In this document: positions 3,738 to 38,746 of the stretch, one piece after another | Layout: the number at the start of each line of letters is the position of its first letter | Numbering within the stretch: the first letter of the stretch is position 1 | Virus record (IMG/VR): IMGVR_UViG_2740892229_000013 | Length of the DNA stretch: 38,746 nt | Origin: a virus | Lineage: Duplodnaviria; Heunggongvirae; Uroviricota; Caudoviricetes | Strand: one strand, 5' to 3' | Made by a program: the position numbers and the translations under genes | The notes under the pieces: generated by a model | Database searches by the model: none | What the model saw: only the letters and a program-made list of their open reading frames with translations | Told to the model about the DNA's origin: nothing

Positions 3738-3766
3738 AGAAGAGGGCCAGAAACGGCCCTTTCTCT
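3738..3766 (+). terminator. Hairpin terminator (T-rich 3' arm)
   Basis: AGGGCC (3743-3748) / GGCCCT (3755-3760), extended by GAGAA/TTCTC with one bulge. Confidence 0.5.
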
Positions 3767-3862
3767 ATAGCCACCAGCTGCCGCAGGGAAATTTTCAGAA
3801 ACGGCGAGGAACGTATTCGTGAGCCGACGGGGAACGGCCAGGATTTTTTCGGGAAACGGCTG
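3747..3862 (+). repeat. Second cluster of the GGGAAACGGCTG-type iteron motif (4-5 copies)
   Basis: AAACGGCCC at 3751-3759, AAACGGCGA at 3799-3807, GAACGGCCA at 3832-3840, AAACGGCTG at 3854-3862 (last two 22 bp apart). GGGAAACGGCTGCAT at 3851-3865 mirrors GGGAAAAGGCTGCAT at 603-617. Confidence 0.55.
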
Positions 3863-7400: not shown

Positions 7401-8960
7401 CTAATCTCGTTTCAGAACTCCAAAATCGAATGCTCCATCAATAGGCAATACACCTTCTGCAAAGCCAGGTGTGGTGTCGATGATGTGTTTTCGCTCATAA
7501 GAGTGAGACAACAGGTATTTGTTGCTAATGTCAATGAAATCAGTGATAAAACACACGTTTGCCTGATTTTTTTTGGCTCGTAAGCCACGACCGACACGCT
7601 GTCTCATTTCAACTTCTGCTTTCCCACCACCAGCAAGAATGACCGCACCAACGCTTGGCACATCAACACCAACATCCAGAATAGTCGAGCCTATTAAAAC
7701 ATCTATTTCACCAGACGCTAAACTGTTCAGCTTTGCTTGCCTTGTCGTCTGGTTAGATTCCCCATAGATGAAATCAACTCTAAGACCTGACTCCTTCATC
7801 ATCTCCATCAGGATTTGCCCGTGGCGTTTAAGACGAACCAGAGTCATGCAGTTGAGTGAATGTTGCTTATAAAGCAATGCCTCGCGCACTATGGCCTCGT
7901 TACGTCCCAAATTATACACGATCCCCAACTGATAAGCCTTTTGGTAGGCGGTGCTCATACCAACTCTAAAATTGAGATGTTTGTTGGCAAGTTCGGCCTT
8001 GATTCTGGCCTCGTCTGGCTTGTAGGCAACTTTATGATAAAGGAAGTACGGCTTTGCCAGAATGCCTCGATCAATCAGGTACTTTTCTGTGACTTTAATT
8101 TCAATTCGCCCGGCCACCGCCATCAGGCGCATGTTGGCTTCCGTCGAATCCTTCATGAACGGCGTGGCTGTAAGCGCCAGACGATAGTCTGCGTTCACAC
8201 ATAATCTGGCGATGTCATAGAAATTTGAGCCTGAAGACTCATGCGCCTCTTCCAGAATAAGAAGAGAGACACTTGAAAGGAAGCGTTTCACCAACTCCCG
8301 ACGTTTGAGGTGGTAGCTTTTCTTATCTGGTGTTGCATCGCGTGGTGGTTCTTCGAGGAAACTTGCAAGAGTTTGAACTGTAGCGACGTTGATATGTCGT
8401 GATACCTGGAACTCACCCGAGCCAATGACTCCAACCTTTTGGTCTTTTAACCACGGTTCGCCATTTTTGGCGCGGTAGTCGATGGATCTCTGGAAGTTTT
8501 CGGCCATTTGAAACATCAGAACAGAGCGGGTTGTTAAAAATAATGTCATTCGACCGATACGTGCAGCTGCTTTGCAGGCAACATTAGATTTCCCGCCACC
8601 AGTAGCGATCTGCGCAATCATCATTCCCTCTCGAACCAGTGTTTCCACAGTCTGATCCTGATACGCATAATCAGGATTGTATGGGAATGGGTTAACCGCC
8701 GGATTTGGTTTTCCAAGCGCCGGGGCTTTGTCTTTGCGGATATGAACACATTTGATGCCCGCCTTGTTCAAGTTCGCCGCTACAGGCTTGGCAAAGCCTG
8801 CAGGGAACGAGTTTTTACTCCAGTTGAACATTGTGCTTGTGCCCTTCCAGTCGCCAGTCTCGACTTCGTAGCTCAACATCTGTTGCACCAGTTGCTTTAC
8901 CTTGTCATCTGCGCCAGAAATAAGCGCATTAACTGCGTTAGATACAATCCGAACAGTCAT
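7401..8960 (-). CDS. SF2 (DEAD/DEAH-type) DNA helicase, 519 aa
   Basis: Motif I ATGGGKS, motif II LEEAH, motif III TATP, motif VI QRVGRGLR, all read in the translation. Confidence 0.9.
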   Translation of the reverse strand: MTVRIVSNAVNALISGADDKVKQLVQQMLSYEVETGDWKGTSTMFNWSKNSFPAGFAKPVAANLNKAGIKCVHIRKDKAPALGKPNPAVNPFPYNPDYAYQDQTVETLVREGMMIAQIATGGGKSNVACKAAARIGRMTLFLTTRSVLMFQMAENFQRSIDYRAKNGEPWLKDQKVGVIGSGEFQVSRHINVATVQTLASFLEEPPRDATPDKKSYHLKRRELVKRFLSSVSLLILEEAHESSGSNFYDIARLCVNADYRLALTATPFMKDSTEANMRLMAVAGRIEIKVTEKYLIDRGILAKPYFLYHKVAYKPDEARIKAELANKHLNFRVGMSTAYQKAYQLGIVYNLGRNEAIVREALLYKQHSLNCMTLVRLKRHGQILMEMMKESGLRVDFIYGESNQTTRQAKLNSLASGEIDVLIGSTILDVGVDVPSVGAVILAGGGKAEVEMRQRVGRGLRAKKNQANVCFITDFIDISNKYLLSHSYERKHIIDTTPGFAEGVLPIDGAFDFGVLKRD

Positions 8961-9042: not shown

Positions 9043-9726
9043 ATGGATGTAAAAATCACGATTTTGCAGGTTGATGTTGCCAACCTTCGCCCGAATACCT
9101 GGAACACCAATTCGGTTGGTGCGCAGAATTTTGAAAAACTGAAAGGTTCTATCGAAAAATTGGGCTTTTTTAAGCCAATTTTGGCTCGTGAACTTGAAGA
9201 TGGATTTTTTGAAATCCTCGGCGGCGAACATCGCTGGCGTGCCGCTATTGAGCAAGGAATTTCAACGGTTCCAGTGCTTTCTGTGGGCAAAATTAGCGAT
9301 GTCGTAGCTAAACAGATGTCACTGGTGGACAACGAGCGATACGGTGAAGACGACCAAATCGCATTGCAACGCTTCATTGAAGAAATTCAGTCAGAACTTG
9401 ACTATCAACTGTCTGAAATCGCCCCGTATGACGACGAAATCTCGATGGTTTTAGCAAAAGAGGCGGCAATCGACCTTGAAGCACTGGAGGCGTTGTCTCG
9501 TGGTAGTGATGAGCCTGTCGATACCGACAAACGAGAGAAAACCGAACGTGTGGGGGCGGAACATCAGACCATGCGCTTCAAAGTAACTTTCGATGCGTCA
9601 GATCGTGTTGCAGAAACCATAAAAAACATCATCAAAGAGCAGGCTATTAACACCGGTAATGAAATGGAGAACGCTGGTGAGGCTCTGGTGTGGCTGGTCG
9701 ACTACTACTACAAGGAGCGTATGTAA
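9043..9726 (+). CDS. ParB/Srx N-terminal-domain protein 1 (227 aa; alternative GTG start 9025)
   Basis: ParB arginine box ILGGEHRWRAA. Acidic central linker. The stop overlaps the next start (TAATG). Confidence 0.8.
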   Translation: MDVKITILQVDVANLRPNTWNTNSVGAQNFEKLKGSIEKLGFFKPILARELEDGFFEILGGEHRWRAAIEQGISTVPVLSVGKISDVVAKQMSLVDNERYGEDDQIALQRFIEEIQSELDYQLSEIAPYDDEISMVLAKEAAIDLEALEALSRGSDEPVDTDKREKTERVGAEHQTMRFKVTFDASDRVAETIKNIIKEQAINTGNEMENAGEALVWLVDYYYKERM

Positions 9727-10394
9727 TGACCAAAAAGTTTGAAATCGTATATCGCGACCCGGCAGATCTTATTCCCTATGAGATGAATGCCAAAAAGCAT
9801 GATGAACAGCAGATCCGAGATCTAGCCGCAGCCATTAAAAAGCGCGGATTTGACCAGCCAATTACGGTCGATAAGAACGACGTAATTATTACTGGCCACG
9901 GCCGCCGTGAGGCTGCAATTTTTGCTGGACTTGAGCGCGTACCGGTTATTGTTCGCGATGATCTCAGTGATGACGAGGTTCGTGCGAAGCGCCTTGAAGA
10001 TAACCGACTTGCCAGCATTGATTACGATGCAATTAAGCTACAGAAAGAGCTTGAGTCGCTTGTTCTGGACGATATCGAGGTTTTCGGCTTTGAAGAGCGT
10101 GAGTTGAATGTTCTCGTTGGCAGCATGACAGAAGAAATGGACACCGACTCGCTAGTTATCGATCTTGGCGAAGAAACTAAACGACAGAAGGATGAACACA
10201 CCGAGATCAGTCGTGAAGTTGCAGCGGAAGAAGTACGTGTTGTCGACGTATTGGGCTTTAAAACGCTTCCTGCTGGCTCTGCCATTGTTGTTGGTGATTT
10301 GCTTGCCCACATGGAAGAAATGACGGGAGAAAGCGGGGTAGACGCATTTGTGGCATATGCGGAGAAGATCTCTTCCGGGGAGATGGCTGTATGA
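9726..10394 (+). CDS. ParB/Srx N-terminal-domain protein 2 (222 aa)
   Basis: Track ORF 9690 trimmed to ATG 9726 (AAGGAG at 9712-9717). Motif ITGHGRREAA. Acidic linker. Confidence 0.8.
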   Translation: MTKKFEIVYRDPADLIPYEMNAKKHDEQQIRDLAAAIKKRGFDQPITVDKNDVIITGHGRREAAIFAGLERVPVIVRDDLSDDEVRAKRLEDNRLASIDYDAIKLQKELESLVLDDIEVFGFEERELNVLVGSMTEEMDTDSLVIDLGEETKRQKDEHTEISREVAAEEVRVVDVLGFKTLPAGSAIVVGDLLAHMEEMTGESGVDAFVAYAEKISSGEMAV

Positions 10395-11056
10395 GCAAAT
10401 ACATCATCAACGTATCGTTTCAGACACGCGTAAATAAAACCACGCGCACGTTGGAAATCGCTGAGTCGTTCGGGCTTGGCCTGGACGAAAAAGAGTGGAC
10501 GCTTTACGACAATCTGGAGCTGGAAGTGAAGCAGGGCGATGTGGTGTACATCACCGGCCAATCCGGTTCCGGCAAATCCGTTGTGCTGCGCGAGTTGCAA
10601 CGACAGATGAAGGATGAAGGGCTGTCTGTAGCCTCCATCGATGATTTTACCTTCGATAATGAGGTTAACGTCATCGATCAGTTGGGCAAAACGACCAGCG
10701 ATGCGCTTGGGTTGTTATCTATGGCTGGTCTGAACGATGCATATCTGTTTGTTCGCAAGCCTTCTGAAATGTCAGACGGTCAGAAATATCGTCTCAAGAT
10801 TGCCAAACTGATTGAGTCAGGCGCTAAAGTGTGGGCTGCTGACGAGTTCGGTGCTGTTCTAGACCGTGTAACCGCTCAGGTTGTGGCATCTAACCTCCAG
10901 CGTGCCGCTCGAAAGGTTGGTGCGACGGTAATGGTGGCGACGACTCACGAAGACCTGAAGAACGCGCTGCGCCCGGATATGCAGATCACCAAGCACTACA
11001 AAGAACGCGTGAAGGTGGAATATCACAATGGTAGTCATGATGAGGTTCATTTATGA
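10391..11056 (+). CDS. ABC-type / P-loop ATPase (221 aa)
   Basis: Walker A GQSGSGKS, signature-like SDGQKYR, Walker B VWAADEF, H-loop-like TTHED. ATGA overlaps at both ends. Confidence 0.85.
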   Translation: MSKYIINVSFQTRVNKTTRTLEIAESFGLGLDEKEWTLYDNLELEVKQGDVVYITGQSGSGKSVVLRELQRQMKDEGLSVASIDDFTFDNEVNVIDQLGKTTSDALGLLSMAGLNDAYLFVRKPSEMSDGQKYRLKIAKLIESGAKVWAADEFGAVLDRVTAQVVASNLQRAARKVGATVMVATTHEDLKNALRPDMQITKHYKERVKVEYHNGSHDEVHL

Positions 11057-11943
11057 CGGACATCATCATTAAACGCTACCGCCCTGAAGAGTTTCCGCGT
11101 CATCTGGACTTTCTGGAGCGAATGACTGTCACAAAGGGAACTGTAGAGGACTGGCACGCTCTTAAGTCGCTTCACTACAAAACAGACGGCAAACCTTTCG
11201 CGCCAACTTACTATCGCTGCGAACTTGATGACCGTCTGGTGGGCGTCGTGGTTATGGCTTACCCGAAACTACTGCTGGCACCTCGCCACCGCATGTTTCC
11301 TAAGTTGAAACCAACCACTAATACCACCGTGGCTAACCAGTACTGGGGTCGGTACGTGAATAACAACTTTGCGGTGATCAGTCGCTCAGTTGTGGATACT
11401 CAGTATCGTGGCGTAGGCGTCTCTTATCGAATGATTAACCTGGTTAGCAGGATGCATGACCGGCCAATCATTGAGATCCAGTCCTCGATGAGCAAATACA
11501 ATCCCTTCGCCATGAAAGCAGGGTTTAAGTTCATCCGCCCTGAGCGACCGAAGAGCTATGAAAGTGCACTGCGTGTATTCCAGCGCCATTTCCGTTCCGA
11601 CCCGGGTGATAACGAGGCGATCGTCAAAGAATTGTTCGCAATGAGCGAGTCTCGTCGTCGCCGTGCACTGCGTGATCTGGTGGCGGACTACCACAAGAAC
11701 AGTTCCCTGGCAAAAGCTGGGCGGAATCGTGGCACGACGATTCAGGACATTGCCGACAGTCTGGTGGACGAGGCCAGCATTGTGAAGCTGCTCAAGGACA
11801 TTCACAACCTGAGCTTTACGTCTCCGTTGTATGGTGTGTACCGAAACCCTGACTTTGGCCGTCGACTGCCTGACACGCTGCCACTGCTGGCATTCGACAA
11901 ACAACCTTTGGATAAACCGTTAGAAATTGCTTTACCGGCATAA
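11053..11943 (+). CDS. GNAT-like acyltransferase-domain protein with helical C-terminal extension (296 aa)
   Basis: Motif-A-like VVDTQYRGVGVS and motif-B-like NPFAMKAGFKF, from pattern recognition only. Confidence 0.6.
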   Translation: MTDIIIKRYRPEEFPRHLDFLERMTVTKGTVEDWHALKSLHYKTDGKPFAPTYYRCELDDRLVGVVVMAYPKLLLAPRHRMFPKLKPTTNTTVANQYWGRYVNNNFAVISRSVVDTQYRGVGVSYRMINLVSRMHDRPIIEIQSSMSKYNPFAMKAGFKFIRPERPKSYESALRVFQRHFRSDPGDNEAIVKELFAMSESRRRRALRDLVADYHKNSSLAKAGRNRGTTIQDIADSLVDEASIVKLLKDIHNLSFTSPLYGVYRNPDFGRRLPDTLPLLAFDKQPLDKPLEIALPA

Positions 11944-11952
11944 GGATTTGCC

Positions 11953-12219
11953 ATGACGTTAACCGATAAACAAAAGGACATCATCAAAACGCTCAATCTC
12001 GGTTATGAGCGAGGTCATCTACTTGACCTGGACGAATTGCTTGAAGTTTTGCCGTACAAGACAACCAAGCAAAGTATCCAGTTCTCAATTCGCGCTCTGA
12101 TAAAAAAGGGGCTGGTGGAGAAAGGGCATACGCGCCAACGCAGTGACAATCGCTATCACCGCCGAACTCTTGGGTTAACCACTTTAGGTCGAGCCAAAGC
12201 GAAGTTACTGGTGATGTAA
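11953..12219 (+). CDS. Small winged-helix DNA-binding protein (88 aa)
   Basis: wHTH-like segment TTKQSIQFSIRALIKKGLVEKG. TAAGGA RBS. Last gene before the packaging module. Confidence 0.6.
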   Translation: MTLTDKQKDIIKTLNLGYERGHLLDLDELLEVLPYKTTKQSIQFSIRALIKKGLVEKGHTRQRSDNRYHRRTLGLTTLGRAKAKLLVM

Positions 12220-12252
12220 TCGGTCTGGGAGCTTATTTAAAGACCTGCATCT

Positions 12253-12289
12253 GTATATATAAATAATAAGTAACTTATTAAATATATAC
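12253..12289. repeat. AT-rich imperfect palindrome centred on AATAAGT-A-ACTTATT (12265-12279)
   Basis: Perfect 15-bp palindrome with GTATATAT...ATATATAC outer arms. Shares the TAAGTA half-site with the GTAAGTA palindrome family. Confidence 0.5.
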
Positions 12290-12336
12290 GGAAGCAGGCT
12301 TCGTAAGACATGCCAGACCTAATTAAACACCCCAGA

Positions 12337-12349
12337 AAACAAGTTGGTT
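12337..12349. promoter_or_regulatory. Palindromic leader box AAACAAGTTGGTT
   Basis: 12/13 match to AAACAAGTTGTTT. First of two copies upstream of TerS. Confidence 0.5.
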
Positions 12350-12361
12350 AGCAGATGCAGT

Positions 12362-12374
12362 AAACAAGTTGTTT
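12362..12374. promoter_or_regulatory. Palindromic leader box AAACAAGTTGTTT
   Basis: Exact copy of 1552-1564. Abuts the hairpin at 12376. Confidence 0.6.
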
Positions 12375-12375
12375 T

Positions 12376-12405
12376 AGAGCGCATGGACGCGCTCTGTGTG
12401 TTTTA
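12376..12405 (+). terminator. Intrinsic terminator/attenuator in the TerS leader
   Basis: AGAGCGC (12376-12382) / GCGCTCT (12389-12395), 6-nt loop, then GTGTGTTTTA. Lies 10 nt before ATG 12415. TTTTAGAG is duplicated at 12372 and 12401. Confidence 0.55.
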
Positions 12406-12414
12406 GAGGGATCT

Positions 12415-13047
12415 ATGACGGTCGAAAAAGACGAGGTAAAAACTCGCCTGACACCAGCGGAGTGGGCCGAAGCTGAAGCCAAATGGACGTCAGGCGAATA
12501 TACACTCTCAAAGCTGGAGGAAGAGTACGGCATTCGTCGTGAAACACTCTCCAGACATTTCAAAAAGCGAGGATTAGAGAAAGGCGCGGACTCTGTTGGG
12601 AAGATGGTTCGTGAGTCTCTTAAATCTGACGCAGAGCTTCGCGCTAAAGTCCGTGCGGAAAAGATAGAAGAACGTCGTACACGTTATGACGGCTGGGCGT
12701 ATGCGTTGGGGCAGATGGTGATGGTCGAAGTCACTACGGCCAAACGTGAGGGTAAGCCTTTAGGGGCGATTGAGGATTCTCTCAAGAGCTTACAGAGAGC
12801 CAGTAATACCCTTGCAAAATGCTTTGAAGTTTCGTCCAAAGCATTGGGCATGGATCATGCGGAAAATGACGAGGAAGAAATTCCGAATCTGGTATTTGGT
12901 GAGCTTACGCCTTCCCAGGTGGCGAAATTACGTCAGGAAGACGACGAGCCTGAAATCATCGATGACGAATTGCTTGAGACGTTGGAAGAAGAAGCTCTAA
13001 GCGAATTTGATGCGACAGATGATGGAAGTGAAGGGGAGGACGAATAA
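12415..13047 (+). CDS. Terminase small subunit (210 aa)
   Basis: Immediately upstream of TerL and overlapping it (TAATG). N-terminal HTH-like region (YTLSKLEEEYGIRRETLSRHFKK). Very acidic C-terminus. Confidence 0.75.
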   Translation: MTVEKDEVKTRLTPAEWAEAEAKWTSGEYTLSKLEEEYGIRRETLSRHFKKRGLEKGADSVGKMVRESLKSDAELRAKVRAEKIEERRTRYDGWAYALGQMVMVEVTTAKREGKPLGAIEDSLKSLQRASNTLAKCFEVSSKALGMDHAENDEEEIPNLVFGELTPSQVAKLRQEDDEPEIIDDELLETLEEEALSEFDATDDGSEGEDE

Positions 13048-14303
13048 TGGCAATCCCGTCCTCGCTCAGTCTTGTGCAACTGCATTCTGGACAGATGAAA
13101 GTCTTCCAGTCTCCGCATCGATTTAAAGTTGTTTGTGCTGGTCGACGCTGGGGAAAATCCCGGTTGTCGATCTCCACTATTATTCGTGCGGCGGCAAAGG
13201 AAAAAAAGCAAAGGGTCTGGTATGTCGCTCCTACTTACCAGATGGCTCGCCAGATTTTGTGGGACGATCTACAGGAAGTTCTGCCTCGTAAGTGGGTTAG
13301 GAAAAAGAACGACACCACGATGACAATCGTGTTGAAGAACGGTTCGGAGATCGCCCTCAAAGGTGCTGATAAGCCTGACACTCTGCGCGGCGTAGCGTTG
13401 CATTTTGTAGTGCTTGATGAATTTCAGGATATGAAGGCTGACACTTGGTACAAGGTGTTACGACCTACTCTTTCATCGACACGCGGCGGTGCACTGATCA
13501 TTGGTACGCCAAAAGGCTTCTCGGAATTTCACAAACTGTGGACTATAGGCCAGAACGTAGAGCTGCAAAGAAAGGGACAGTGGAAGAGCTGGCAGTTTGT
13601 AACTGCCGATTCTCCGTTTGTACCTACGGCGGAAATTGAAGCTGCTAAGAACGATATGGACCCCAAATCGTTCGCTCAGGAGTACCTGGCCAGCTTTGAG
13701 AACATGTCCGGGCGCGTTTACTACCCGTTCGATCGTAACGTGCATGTAAAACCGCTTCAGTTCAACCCTCGGTTACCTATATGGGTAGGGCAGGACTTCA
13801 ACATTGACCCGATGTCTTCCGTAATTTTGCAACCTCAGCCAAATGGTGAGCTATGGGCAATTGATGAATTGGTGCTCTTTTCCTCTAACACGGCAGAGGT
13901 TTGTGATGAGCTTGAGAGACGCTTCTGGCGCTGGAAATCACAGATAACGATATTTCCAGATCCGGCAGGTGCTTATCGCCAACATGCTCGCGGGGAGTCT
14001 GACGTCGACATATTCAAAGAGAAGGGATTCTTACGTGTCGATTATTCGAAAAAGCACCCGCCAATTGCGGATCGTGTTAATGCTGTTAACCGAATGCTGA
14101 TGACCGCATCTGGAGATATCCGGCTGTATATCGATCCGAAGTGCAAGCATTTGATTGATTCACTGGAAAAAGTCATCTACAAGCCTGGAACACGAGATAT
14201 GGATAAGACAGGTGGCATTGAGCATAGTGCAGACGCATTGGGCTATCCAGTACATCGTAGGTATCCAGTCAAAAACCGTGTTATTCTTGGTGGTTCTCGA
14301 TAG
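13047..14303 (+). CDS. Terminase large subunit (418 aa)
   Basis: Walker A CAGRRWGKS, Walker B VVLDEFQD. Size and position upstream of the portal gene. Confidence 0.9.
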   Translation: MAIPSSLSLVQLHSGQMKVFQSPHRFKVVCAGRRWGKSRLSISTIIRAAAKEKKQRVWYVAPTYQMARQILWDDLQEVLPRKWVRKKNDTTMTIVLKNGSEIALKGADKPDTLRGVALHFVVLDEFQDMKADTWYKVLRPTLSSTRGGALIIGTPKGFSEFHKLWTIGQNVELQRKGQWKSWQFVTADSPFVPTAEIEAAKNDMDPKSFAQEYLASFENMSGRVYYPFDRNVHVKPLQFNPRLPIWVGQDFNIDPMSSVILQPQPNGELWAIDELVLFSSNTAEVCDELERRFWRWKSQITIFPDPAGAYRQHARGESDVDIFKEKGFLRVDYSKKHPPIADRVNAVNRMLMTASGDIRLYIDPKCKHLIDSLEKVIYKPGTRDMDKTGGIEHSADALGYPVHRRYPVKNRVILGGSR

Positions 14304-35772: not shown

Positions 35773-38746
35773 ATGGCAGTAAAAATTTCAGGTGTACTGA
35801 AAGACGGCACAGGAAAACCGGTACAGAACTGCACAATCCAGCTGAAAGCAAAACGTAACAGTACCACGGTGGTGGTGAACACGCTGGCATCTGAAAATCC
35901 GGATGAAGCCGGGCGTTACAGTATGGACGTTGAGTACGGTCAGTACAGCGTTATTCTGTTGGTGGAAGGATTCCCGCCGTCACATGCCGGGACCATCACA
36001 GTGTATGAAGATTCCCGACCCGGTACGCTGAATGATTTTCTCGGTGCCATGACGGAGGATGATGCCCGTCCGGAGGCACTGCGCCGTTTTGAACTGATGG
36101 TGGAAGAGGTGGCGCGTAACGCGTCCGCGGTGGCACAGAACACGGCAGCCGCGAAGAAGTCAGCCAGCGATGCCGGCACATCAGCCCGTGAGGCGGCAAC
36201 CCATGCGACTGATGCTGCAGGCTCAGCACGTGCAGCCAGCACATCAGCCGGGCAGGCCGCGACGTCGGCTCAGTCAGCGTCTTCCAGCGCAGGAACGGCA
36301 TCAACAAAGGCTACTGAAGCATCAAAAAGTGCTGCCGCTGCAGAGTCCTCAAAAAGCGCGGCGGCCACCAGTNNNNNNNNNNCGCAGCCAGCACGTCAGC
36401 CGGACAGGCCGCGTCGTCGGCTCAGTCAGCGACTTCCAGCGCAGGAACGGCATCAACAAAGGCCACTGAAGCATCAAAAAGTGCTGCCGCTGCAGAGTCC
36501 TCAAAAAGCGCGGCAGCTACCAGTGCCAGTGCCGCGAAAACGTCAGAAACGAATGCGGCAGCGTCACAACAATCAGCAGCCACTTCTGCATCCACCGCGA
36601 CTACGAAAGCGTCAGAAGCTGCCACCTCAGCCCGGGATGCGGCGGCTTCAAAAGAGGCGGCAAAATCATCAGAAACGAACGCATCCTCGAGCGCCAGTAG
36701 CGCAGCTTCCTCGGCAACAGCGGCAGGAAATTCCGCGAAGGCGGCAAAAACGTCAGAGACGAACGCCAGGTCTTCTGAAACGGCAGCGGGACAGAGCGCC
36801 TCGGCTGCGGCAGGCNNNNNNNNNNGGCAGCGTCACAAAAATCTGCAGCCACTTCTGCATCCACCGCGACCACAAAGGCGTCAGAAGCTGCCATCTCAGC
36901 CCGGGATGCGGCGGCCTCAAAAGAGGCAGCGAAATCATCAGAAACGAACGCATCATCAAGTGCCAGTAGTGCAGCTTCCTCGGCAACGGCGGCAGCAAAT
37001 TCTGCGAAGGCGGCAAAAACGTCCGAGACGAACGCCAAGGCTTCTGAAACGGCAGCGGGACAGAGCGCCTCAGCTGCGGCAGGCTCAAAAACAGCGGCTG
37101 CATTATCTGCCAGTGCCGCGTCAACAAGTGCCGGGCAGGCCTCAGCCAGTGCCACCGCCGCCGGAAAATCGGCAGAAAGTGCTGCATCGTCTGCTTCAAC
37201 AGCCACAACGAATGCTGGCGAAGCCGCTGTACAGGCCAGCGCAGCAGCGAGGTCAGCTTCCGCAGCGAAGACATCCGAGACGAACGCGAAAGCGTCGGAA
37301 ACCAGCGCAGAATCCTCAAAAACGGCAGCGGCATCGTCCGCCAGTTCGGCGGCGTCATCGGCATCATCGGCGTCTGCTTCAAAAGATGAGGCGACCAGAC
37401 AGGCGTCAGCAGCGAAGAGCAGCGCCACGACGGCATCCACGAAAGCAACAGAGGCGGCAGGCAGTGCGACGGCGGCAGCACAGAGCAAAAGTACGGCGGA
37501 ATCCGCGGCAACGCGCGCCGAGACAGCGGCAAAACGGGCAGAGGATATTGCATCCGTCGTGGCGCTTGAGGATGCGAGCACGACGAAAAAGGGGGTAGTA
37601 CAGCTCAGCAGTGCGACCAACAGTACGTCTGAAACGCTGGCGGCAACGCCAAAGGCAGTAAAATCAGCCTATGACAATGCAGAGAAACGTCTGCAGAAAG
37701 ACCAGAACGGCGCTGATATACCCGACAAGGACCGCTTCCTGAGTAACATTAATGTTTACAGCAAAGGTGAAGTGGATCAGAAAAAGGGGATGCGATACGT
37801 TGTGGTAAATGCCCCGGCGGGTGTCCAGGAAGGTAAATATTATCCGTTAGTGATAAAAAGGAATGACAGCCATCGGGCATCCCGCGTTGTCATTTCAACG
37901 CCAAGTCGCTCAGCTAATCACAGAATGAATAATTGTGAGTTTAATGGTTTTGTTTGCGCAGGCGGCTGGACGGACCGGGGTAGCTATGCCTGTGGTATGT
38001 TCTGGGCTTATTCAACATCGGAACGCGCTATTCATTCCATTCTGATGAGTAATAAAGGCGATACCGTAGACAGCGTATTCTATATAGAAGGTGGGGCATT
38101 TCCCGTAGAGGTCTTTTTAGAAGAAGGTCTCTCCGTTACTGCACCTGCTTCTGATTATATTGTTGCTGAAACGACTTATAAATTTGGCGCAACTGATCCT
38201 TATTCTGAATCAGTTGCGGTAAATTTAATTTTAGATTTTAAACAAGGTAATGGATTTTATAGTTCATATCCTGTTTTGAGTAAGTCAGACATTAGCGGGA
38301 ATAAGATTTACGCTAATGATGAAGTTATTGTCCGTAGTCAGAACGCGTTAAGGATGATTGCAGGTGATTACGGTGTCATATGGCGAAATGATGGAGCAAA
38401 TACTTACTTGCTCATGACTGATAAAGGCGACCAGTACGGTGGCTGGAACGGTCTTCGACCATTTGCAGTAAATAACGCAACAGGTGAAGTGACGATCAAT
38501 ACACCACTTAATTCTCCTAAGGGGATTAAGGGAAATTCTGATACAGCTACGAAACTTCAGACAGCAATAAAAATATCTGGTGTTTCGTTTGATGGTTCTA
38601 CTGATATCACTTTAACCGCTGCGCATGTTGCTGCTTTTGCCAGAAGAGCAACGGATACGTATGCCGATGCGGATGGGGGCGTTCCATGGAATGCCGAATC
38701 AGGCGCTTACAATGTCACCCGCTCTGGCGACAGCTATATTCTGGTT
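35773..38746 (+). CDS. stf: Lambda Stf-like side tail fibre, broken by two scaffold gaps and open at the window end
   Basis: N-terminus MAVKISGVLKDGTGKPVQNCTIQLKA... matches the recalled lambda Stf. True frames by hand: frame 1 for 35773-36372, frame 3 for 36384-36815, frame 2 for 36827-38746. The distal part carries the fibre repeat GNSDTATKLQTAIKISGVSFDGSTDITLT. Confidence 0.85.
36373..36382. other. Scaffold gap (10 N)
   Basis: Run of n characters. The frame changes across it. Confidence 1.
36816..36825. other. Scaffold gap (10 N)
   Basis: Run of n characters. The frame changes across it. Confidence 1.

Follow-up and report, generated by a model that had tools for sequence, protein, structure and literature searches.

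We analysed 38,746 nucleotides of a virus genome (IMG/VR record IMGVR_UViG_2740892229_000013; hereafter the window) and found that a chain of four plus-strand open reading frames (ORFs) at positions 9043-11943 encodes two ParB-like proteins (ParB1 and ParB2), an ABC-type ATPase (ORF3) and a GNAT-fold protein (ORF4). From the sequences compared here, ORF3 and ORF4 appear to be the two halves of an ABC-GNAT enzyme that is made as a single polypeptide in most other viruses and is split in the SSU5 lineage. The module seems to be widespread among tailed viruses, with a core that is usually accompanied by one or two ParB/Srx proteins, and in tailed viruses of bacteria and archaea alike the cassette is linked, in varied gene orders, to the packaging genes. 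We tentatively favour, as a possibility short of a probable explanation, that the cassette specifies an NTP-gated, ParB-assisted acyl-CoA transferase that would act on replicated phage DNA or on DNA-bound proteins at the time of packaging.

The window derives from an SSU5/Cyrano-like phage-plasmid, its cassette being 99.4% identical to that of Escherichia phage Cyrano and 85% identical to that of Salmonella phage SSU5, which is the type member of a large supergroup of phage-plasmids (PMC7969092). In the Cyrano and SSU5 records the first three genes are labelled ParB, ParB-like nuclease and ABC transporter, and the labels given to ORF4 are 'MK0520 protein, ABC-type ATPase fused to a predicted acetyltransferase domain' or 'ABC transporter ATP-binding subunit'. 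Literature searches (COG2401; combinations of ParB, terminase, ABC and acetyltransferase) returned no publication on the module, its terminase link or its function, and the phage-plasmid papers found mention ParB solely as a partition marker. The component superfamilies and the COG-type fusion name are already known, and the module itself is undescribed in the literature found. An earlier prediction made from the window sequence (hereafter the original prediction) could name no characterised system of this composition; this holds in that we found none either, but the family had already been named as the COG2401/MK0520 type.

The split enzyme and its ParB-like partners

Among 1.84 billion representative proteins, a profile search with ORF4 returned 943 relatives (E ≤ 1e-3), and most of the distant full-length relatives have 440-500 amino acids (aa), with an ABC_tran domain in the N-terminal half and an ORF4-like C-terminal half. 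In about 60 fusion proteins, a hidden Markov model (HMM) of ORF3 orthologues matched the N-terminal half (E 1e-20 to 1e-82) and the corresponding ORF4 model matched the C-terminal half (E about 1e-19 to 1e-32). Because the two models match both halves of the same polypeptides in the same order, ORF3 and ORF4 together are best read as a split ABC-GNAT enzyme, and this homology of both halves, ABC and then GNAT, places them with the COG2401-type family. A profile of the fusion recovered at least 2200 proteins at E ≤ 1e-10; its named members come mostly from assemblies of Bathyarchaeia, Nitrososphaerota and other Thermoproteota, and several of them bear the name 'ABC-type ATPase with predicted acetyltransferase domain' (COG2401/MK0520 type). 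The uncharacterised COG2401/MK0520-like family has the same two halves in the same order, whereas in the window the enzyme is divided over two genes that follow a pair of genes for ParB-like proteins.

The fusions extend to the ParB-like partners. Four proteins of 666-699 aa carry an N-terminal ParB-like domain and a zinc ribbon ahead of ABC-GNAT, and this domain matches the ParB1 and ParB2 HMMs at E 2e-5 to 5e-10. Since ABC-GNAT and ParB-ABC-GNAT fusions both exist, the parts of the cassette form one functional unit. Further fusion partners are a family-B DNA polymerase and, by reading of the sequence, a P-loop with a PD-(D/E)xK-like region. In one ABC-GNAT homologue (P0164), the ABC domain is interrupted by a LAGLIDADG intein.

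The original prediction had argued for a stoichiometric complex from translational coupling. Every ORF, overlap position and motif that it quoted was recovered where it had been placed, including the junction overlaps TAATG (9724-9728) and ATGA (10391-10394 and 11053-11056). The overlap chain is, however, weak evidence for a complex, because overlapping same-strand junctions are frequent in the late operon of the window (9 of 22) and because the chain is not conserved: all three junctions are tight in 20 of the 101 related loci that have all four genes, and at least one additional ORF lies between the ABC gene and ORF4 in 66 of these 101. The strong evidence for a complex comes from the natural gene fusions, rather than from the overlaps, and the fusions now carry the argument. 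A scan of the cassette for promoters and terminators gave no signals above chance.

In relatives, additional ORFs are often inserted where the ABC gene meets ORF4, a hot spot for insertions, and the window represents the insert-free state. The inserts comprise an 84-aa ORF (SSU5_128 type), which SSU5 itself carries between its ABC gene and its ORF4 homologue, a 182-189-aa ORF with a HEALH motif, and HAD-like and DUF2829-like ORFs; insert-bearing loci are L002 (at 10977-11231), L083, L086, L088, L094, L099 and L104. Records of Rhizobium phages label a DUF2829 domain protein at the insertion point of the cassette, DUF2829 being the family of the anti-Thoeris protein Tad2.

ORF3 has the complete set of ABC ATPase motifs in the expected order, namely Walker A (GQSGSGKS, residues 56-63), the signature (SDGQKYR, 128-134), Walker B with the catalytic E (VWAADEF, 147-153) and the H-loop (TTHED, 184-188), together with a D-loop LD (LDR) and a candidate Q-loop. 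Its match to Pfam ABC_tran (E 6e-13) upholds the earlier assignment as an NTPase, and the ABC catalytic motifs are invariant across 25 fusion homologues. ORF3 had been described as 'ABC/SMC-like', of which the ABC part is sustained and the SMC part is not: SMC_N was matched at E 0.004, under the cutoff, and the distance from Walker A to the signature is about 65 aa. An ATPase of the SMC/Rad50/RecN type was rejected on the overall length of 221 aa and the lack of a coiled coil.

The best NCBIfam and PDB matches of ORF3 were transporter-type nucleotide-binding domains such as CcmA, FtsE, LolD and MetN. Together with the 'ABC transporter' names in PHROGs and GenBank, this would make ORF3 a component of a true ABC transporter, as the product names state. 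We find this hardly credible, as there is no permease or substrate-binding gene in the cassette or among its conserved neighbours, the protein labelled 'ABC transporter ATP-binding subunit' (ORF4) has no P-loop and has a GNAT fold, and in the proteins examined the fusions are to GNAT, ParB and DNA polymerase, never to membrane domains.

For ORF4, the model fold, motifs A and B and the Pfam matches of its relatives all agree with the original call as a GNAT. The structural model has the alpha/beta fold, and the sequence contains both motif A (YRGVGVS, of the form Q/R-x-x-G-x-G/A) and motif B (NPFAMKAGFKF). Within motif A, R119 and G122 are invariant and the last position is Ser in the SSU5 lineage. 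The canonical motif A of relatives reads YRGIGIA or YQGIGIG, and distant relatives with YRGIGIA match Pfam GNAT models directly, over their cutoffs. ORF4 itself had no match in Pfam, NCBIfam or PADLOC, and a phmmer search of the PDB gave chance matches to AlkD only (E about 1). Its top matches in a viral structure library were GNATs, among them a Mom homologue and a protein of Leptospira phage LE4. ORF4 is thus a predicted acyl-CoA transferase whose acyl-CoA motifs are intact. The protein is strongly basic (isoelectric point, pI, 9.8). The helical tail of about 130 aa noted in the original prediction was recovered as a basic helical region at about residues 165-255, but it does not seem to be helical throughout, as it appears to end in conserved C-terminal beta-strands (LYGVYRNPD); such a region occurs throughout the family, and much of it is common to more distant fusion relatives too. 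A GNAT toxin-antitoxin pair (TacT/AtaT type) was rejected on the size of ORF4 (296 aa), its coupling to an ABC ATPase and the lack of an antitoxin-like partner conserved across virus groups.

Pfam ParB_N confirmed the ParB/Srx calls for the first two ORFs, with ParB1 (E 3e-13) and ParB2 (E 1e-8) both over threshold. Each protein has the N-terminal fold and Box II (GxxRxxA) of the ParB/Srx superfamily (PF02195), Box II being GGEHRWRAA at residues 60-68 of ParB1 and GHGRREAA at residues 57-64 of ParB2, which has the further motifs NAKKH, DQPITV and EDNR. ParB1 matched phrog_723 (E 9e-78) and, in the PDB, Spo0J, ParB and Noc chains (E 3e-9 to 1e-5); ParB2 likewise matched Spo0J and other ParB chains by sequence. 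The two are paralogues, with 33% identity across the first ~115 residues. Outside its own family, the N-domain of ParB2 strongly matched ParB-methyltransferase fusions (phrog_498, E 2e-31; PADLOC MTase_II, E 3e-17), and it also matched several further ParB families. With hhalign, ParB1 aligned at 97% probability to the N-domain of a 461-aa ParB at locus L110 that bears a helix-turn-helix (HTH_ParB; HTH); this alignment ends at residue 113, and no HTH was thus detected in ParB1. A recognisable HTH was not found in the structural model of ParB2, whose C-terminal half is acidic and helical. Both proteins are acidic (pI 4.5), above all in their C-terminal halves (pI 4.3 for that of ParB1).

The pair does not show the central HTH and C-terminal dimerisation domain of a canonical ParABS ParB. 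A search of the window ORFs and a Pfam scan revealed no ParA-like ORF within or beside the cassette, and reading of the ParB1 and ParB2 sequences revealed no ParA-binding motif of the LG(K/R)GL type. In SSU5, a ParA-like gene followed by small ORFs is located about 30 kb into the record, far from the cassette, suggesting that plasmid partition is independent of the cassette. With no adjacent ParA, no HTH in the ParB2 model and this distant ParA-like gene, we agree with the original prediction that the locus is not a classical ParABS system. Could the two ParB-like proteins still be centromere-binding proteins, with the ABC ATPase as an unconventional partition motor? The window comes from a phage-plasmid, annotations read 'ParB-like partition protein', the carriers include several plasmid prophages (SSU5 and the Leptospira LE-type phages), and many of the relatives were found on contigs of ~100-118 kb. 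We nevertheless consider partition very unlikely. In addition to the remote ParA-like gene, the HTH-less ParB2 and the missing ParA-binding motif, the module occurs in an integrated streptococcal prophage, a Gordonia phage and integrated archaeal proviruses, and partition leaves no role for a GNAT.

The cassette ParBs have in common with ParABS and ParB-SMC systems the N-terminal CTPase-type domain, whereas the cassette lacks ParA, an HTH in the ParB2 model and a coiled-coil SMC architecture. Recruitment of an ABC-type ATPase (SMC) to DNA by ParB is a known pairing. Overall, the cassette has the defining features of the ParB/Srx, ABC ATPase, GNAT and COG2401-type families, and does not have those of ParABS, ABC transporters, SMC-type ATPases or GNAT toxins.

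Linkage to packaging genes across tailed viruses

A scan of viral contigs with the ORF4 profile returned close relatives only (≥ 80% identity), and hence no independent census; SSU5-like loci were drawn from GTDB contigs, one genome per species. In all 25 of these loci the order was helicase (minus strand), ParB1, ParB2, ABC, GNAT, a winged HTH gene in most, the small and large terminase subunits (TerS and TerL) and portal, so that the four-gene order noted originally is kept in related phages. The hosts include Yersinia, Kluyvera, Xenorhabdus, Morganella, Sphingomonas, Paracoccus, Magnetospirillum, Methylocystis and Halomonas; ORF4 identity across the 25 loci falls to about 40%, and many of the contigs are ~96-118 kb in length. 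This synteny largely reflects vertical inheritance in one virus lineage. The full SSU5-type arrangement was seen at L091-L105 (GTDB contigs) in Alphaproteobacteria (Paracoccus, Magnetospirillum, Phyllobacterium, Roseospira, Ancylobacter and Faunimonas), on contigs of the same size range, which suggests that SSU5-like phage-plasmids reach far beyond Enterobacterales.

A second group consists of metagenomic viral contigs, in which a ParB gene is followed by the ABC gene in about 20 loci, with TerL detected downstream in about 15. Locus L126, inspected closely, adds a TerS-like gene and a small GNAT (motif A YQGIGIG; Pfam Acetyltransf_7, E 6e-8). L110 has a ParB-ABC-GNAT fusion followed by TerS-like, TerL and portal genes, and upstream of the fusion lies a gene for a second ParB, a ParB1-type protein (GEHRWRAA) that bears an HTH. 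The third group is mainly archaeal; of its best 80 loci, 49 have TerL upstream of ABC-GNAT, in most cases abutting or overlapping it. In archaeal proviruses (Nitrososphaerota/Bathyarchaeia type and others; e.g., L229 and L231), no viral gene, or almost none, separates ABC-GNAT from the host genes. A large number of IMG/VR contigs (many of L145-L224) stop exactly at the ABC-GNAT stop codon. We considered and rejected this codon as a genome terminus; trimming of proviruses at gene borders is likelier, because host genes begin within a few small ORFs in the archaeal genomes.

The module was also present in cultured phages. Prophage 315.4 of Streptococcus pyogenes carries ParB (ParB2 HMM, E 2e-37), ABC, a short GNAT (Acetyltransf_1, E 4e-9), an ASCH-domain gene, a DUF5681 protein, TerL and portal. 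In Gordonia phage BiggityBass the cassette is at the left genome end, with ParB as gp1, ABC-GNAT as gp2, a formyl-transferase-like protein as gp3 and the terminase as gp4. Leptospira phage LE4 has ParB, ABC-GNAT, three small genes (the third encoding a DUF5681 protein), TerL and portal, and the module is found in addition in 106-120-kb phages of Pseudomonas (nickie), Rhizobium (RHph), Stenotrophomonas and Xanthomonas. Two of these loci have a further gene with a relation to amines or bases between the module and the terminase. BiggityBass gp3 (L226, 1823-2473) belongs to Formyl_trans_N and bears the annotation tRNA methyltransferase, and the ASCH-domain gene of prophage 315.4 lies at L225, 6113-6490. 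The ASCH gene did not recur in the clustered loci, among which 315.4 is the only cultured streptococcal phage. It is of note because the Escherichia coli ASCH protein YqfB hydrolyses N4-acetylcytidine.

Clustering of neighbouring ORFs revealed TerS-like and TerL genes as the only partners of ABC-GNAT across virus groups, the remainder being lineage-specific structural genes; the largest neighbour cluster was spoiled by spurious overlapping ORFs. TerL was the gene most consistently linked to ABC-GNAT across groups. Collectively, the fusions and the synteny in unrelated viruses substantiate the view that the four products work as one unit ahead of TerS and TerL. The adjacent TerLs are highly divergent, and some were missed by an iterative search seeded with the TerL of the window. 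In relatives from Xenorhabdus hominickii (L087, 9941-12190) and Novosphingobium (L092, 10021-12537), the TerL ORF is about twice the normal length and possibly contains an intein.

Such consistent linkage raises a serious alternative, a strict cofactor of packaging, in which the ParB-like proteins would mark or nick a pac or cos site and ABC-GNAT would regulate the terminase by acetylating TerS or TerL or by ATP-dependent loading. The module would then be needed for genome cleavage or motor assembly, not for DNA modification, with a ParB role analogous to that of gp74 of phage HK97. By a positional analogy, HNH accessory proteins of the gp74 type are likewise small nuclease-superfamily proteins encoded just before TerS and TerL, across the packaging site; ParB1 and ParB2 differ from them in fold. 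That TerS and TerL are the sole consistent neighbours in three virus groups and two gene orders speaks for a packaging cofactor, as do a conserved palindrome at the starts of the SSU5 and Cyrano records, 25 nucleotides past the last gene of the cassette, and the nicking reported for ParB/Srx domains of several families (PMC5512222). We still judge it unlikely. The genome already encodes a TerS-like protein and a TerL (Terminase_6N, with Terminase_6C just under the cutoff), no known terminase requires an acyltransferase or an ABC ATPase, and the divergence of the TerLs argues against co-evolution with a single type of motor.

What the cassette may do

Our favoured acyltransferase reading takes its closest analogies from enzymes partnered by ParB-fold proteins. 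Phage DNA thymine dioxygenases (5mYOX) have ParB-like activators that lack a DNA-binding domain (PMC13229309), and catalogued ParB-fold fusions include methyltransferases, acetyltransferases and ASCH domains (bioRxiv 10.1101/2025.10.10.680097). In the 5mYOX systems and in the ParB-N6/N4-methyltransferase fusions (phrog_498), as in the cassette, a ParB/Srx NTP-binding domain with no obvious DNA-binding domain stands beside or is fused to an enzyme in a late or modification region of the phage; by contrast, the partner in the cassette is a GNAT with an ABC ATPase, and there are two ParB paralogues. By these analogies we rate the cassette as a putative member of the same kind, that of ParB-partnered DNA-modifying enzymes. 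For the chemistry, TmcA/NAT10 join an ATPase to a GNAT and use ATP hydrolysis and acetyl-CoA to make N4-acetylcytidine in RNA. The NTPase module joined to a GNAT is an architectural analogy, and TmcA differs in having a RecD-like helicase module and tRNA-binding domains and no ABC domain. Mom of phage Mu is a GNAT-fold DNA adenine carbamoylmethyl-transferase, without an ABC or ParB partner. The precedents of TmcA/NAT10 and Mom make acyl chemistry of this kind feasible.

We propose a model in which, late in infection, the ParB-like proteins would associate, under the control of an NTP, with replicated phage DNA or with the enzyme and would recruit or activate ABC-GNAT, as the thymine dioxygenase activators do and as the ParB part of ParB-methyltransferase fusions perhaps does. 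ATP-driven head-to-tail dimerisation of the ABC domains could then close two basic GNAT domains onto the substrate, and the GNAT, with acyl-CoA as the donor, would acylate an amine on DNA that awaits packaging. The acceptor may be a base, by the logic of Mom and TmcA, or a DNA-bound protein such as a nucleoid protein or the terminase. We infer viral DNA or a DNA-bound target from the fusions to DNA enzymes, the basic GNAT and the analogies with ParB-partnered enzymes, and the order of events, their timing and the chemistry are likewise inferred. A bolder version, which we regard as speculative and improbable, is that ABC-GNAT represents a new class of DNA-modifying enzyme common to tailed viruses of bacteria and archaea, an ATP-gated acylase, activated by ParB in many lineages, of the exocyclic amines of DNA bases (giving, e.g., N4-acetyl-deoxycytidine) in genomes that await packaging. 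In a close variant, it would be an acetyltransferase that tracks along DNA and clears nucleoid proteins (HU, H-NS, Alba) from the path of the packaging motor.

Several observations weigh against the favoured reading. The likeness of ORF4 to Mom (PDB 8bv8) is not above its likeness to ordinary GNATs, and to our knowledge transporter-type ABC domains do not act as DNA clamps. Acidic and HTH-less, ParB1 and ParB2 may make no contact with DNA at all and could have the enzyme as their sole target. There is no ParB near ABC-GNAT in the large archaeal group, which indicates that ParB is not essential to the core activity. The literature searched reports no modified base for SSU5-like phages. Adjacency to the terminase could reflect the start or end of a late operon, where accessory genes gather, and both the variable ORFs inside the cassette (including DUF2829-like ones) and the provirus-edge position of the archaeal gene are typical of accessory regions.

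Some of these observations would suit a second serious alternative, in which the module is an accessory anti-defence or host-takeover enzyme that acylates a host protein, a small molecule (a polyamine, nucleotide signal or antibiotic-like compound) or an aminoacyl-tRNA, and its position beside the terminase is incidental. The insertion hot spot with its variable small ORFs, DUF2829 in Rhizobium phages among them, the place of the archaeal gene last or nearly last before host genes and the dispensable ParB of the archaeal group all fit such an enzyme; GNATs, moreover, mostly act on proteins or small molecules, and the ABC protein weakly matches the MADS components mad3 and mad8 in PADLOC. An accessory gene is harder to reconcile with synteny that is stable in very different lineages (25 of 25 GTDB loci; at least 2200 fusion proteins), with a reading frame that, in those archaeal loci that were checked (e.g., L231), directly adjoins the end of TerL or overlaps it, with fusions to ParB and DNA polymerase, which point to DNA, or with an ORF4 covered by no PADLOC family. 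On balance we find the accessory role doubtful.

If DNA acylation proved true, it would be a previously unknown epigenetic or anti-restriction mark placed on genomes before packaging. Should the module modify DNA or DNA-bound proteins, acyl-transfer chemistry with an unusual ABC-ATPase gate would join the mechanisms by which phages protect their genomes or prepare them for packaging, and would be common to bacterial and archaeal viruses. A function would follow for thousands of genes that at present carry the wrong labels, 'ABC transporter' or 'partition protein', including those of clinically common phage-plasmids of the SSU5/pHCM2/pMT1 type in Salmonella, E. coli, Klebsiella and Yersinia. 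The cassette also offers a second testable case of ParB-fold proteins as enzyme activators instead of partition proteins, and provides a correction to phage-plasmid screens in which these ParB genes are scored as markers of partition.

Neighbouring genes and other features of the window

The cassette and the features around it are listed in the table below.

Table 1 Positions and properties of the cassette genes and adjacent features in the window.
Feature	Position	Strand	Properties
ParB1	9043-9726	+	227 aa; ParB/Srx N-domain
ParB2	9726-10394	+	222 aa; ParB/Srx N-domain
ORF3	10391-11056	+	221 aa; soluble ABC-type ATPase, single nucleotide-binding domain
ORF4	11053-11943	+	296 aa; basic GNAT-fold protein, predicted acyl-CoA transferase
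Small basic winged-HTH-like protein	11953-12219	+	88 aa; pI 10.2; phrog_900 E 2e-45
AT-rich near-perfect palindrome	12244-12298		Inverted repeats I1 and I4; in the 195-nucleotide gap between the winged-HTH-like and TerS-like genes
TerS-like DNA-binding protein	12415-13047	+	210 aa; phrog_867 E 7e-100
TerL	13047-14303	+	418 aa; Pfam Terminase_6N E 3e-9
UvsW/ResIII-DEAD type helicase	7401-8960	-	Divergent from the cassette

The winged-HTH-like protein showed weak matches to Sta1/Lrs14 HTH models, and its gene, 3' of ORF4 in most SSU5-like loci, was not found in the other virus groups. The TerS-like gene is named 'Terminase small subunit' in Cyrano and is kept in 25 of the 25 GTDB loci. The TerL of the window matched Terminase_6C at E 1.7e-4, slightly under the cutoff. 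The helicase kept its position in 24 of the 24 loci with sufficient upstream flank and is fragmented by frameshifts in L107.

The palindrome is a candidate cos or pac site. The GenBank record of Cyrano ends at window position 12281 and starts at 12282, the SSU5 record breaks one base earlier, and both breaks coincide with the start of the right arm of the palindrome. If the record ends are true termini, the cassette would lie at the extreme right of the virion DNA, with TerS and TerL at the left. On the 3' side of the palindrome there are two direct repeats of 17 nucleotides, at 12333-12349 and at 12358-12374, and then a GC hairpin at 12375-12396.

The repeat arrays at 601-735 and 3747-3862, put forward originally as possible targets of the ParB-like proteins, could be reduced to a modestly enriched motif, GAAACGGY; a link to ParB1 or ParB2 was not found, as no copy lies near the cassette. 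The window has 9 copies of the motif where about 3 would be expected, 9 being reached in 1 of 100 shuffles, and five plus-strand copies cluster at 627-678 and 3750-3860. In the tail-fibre region, positions 36555-37084 hold a tandem duplication of a 269-nucleotide unit (2.0 copies, 88% identity) with Ala/Ser-rich coding potential.

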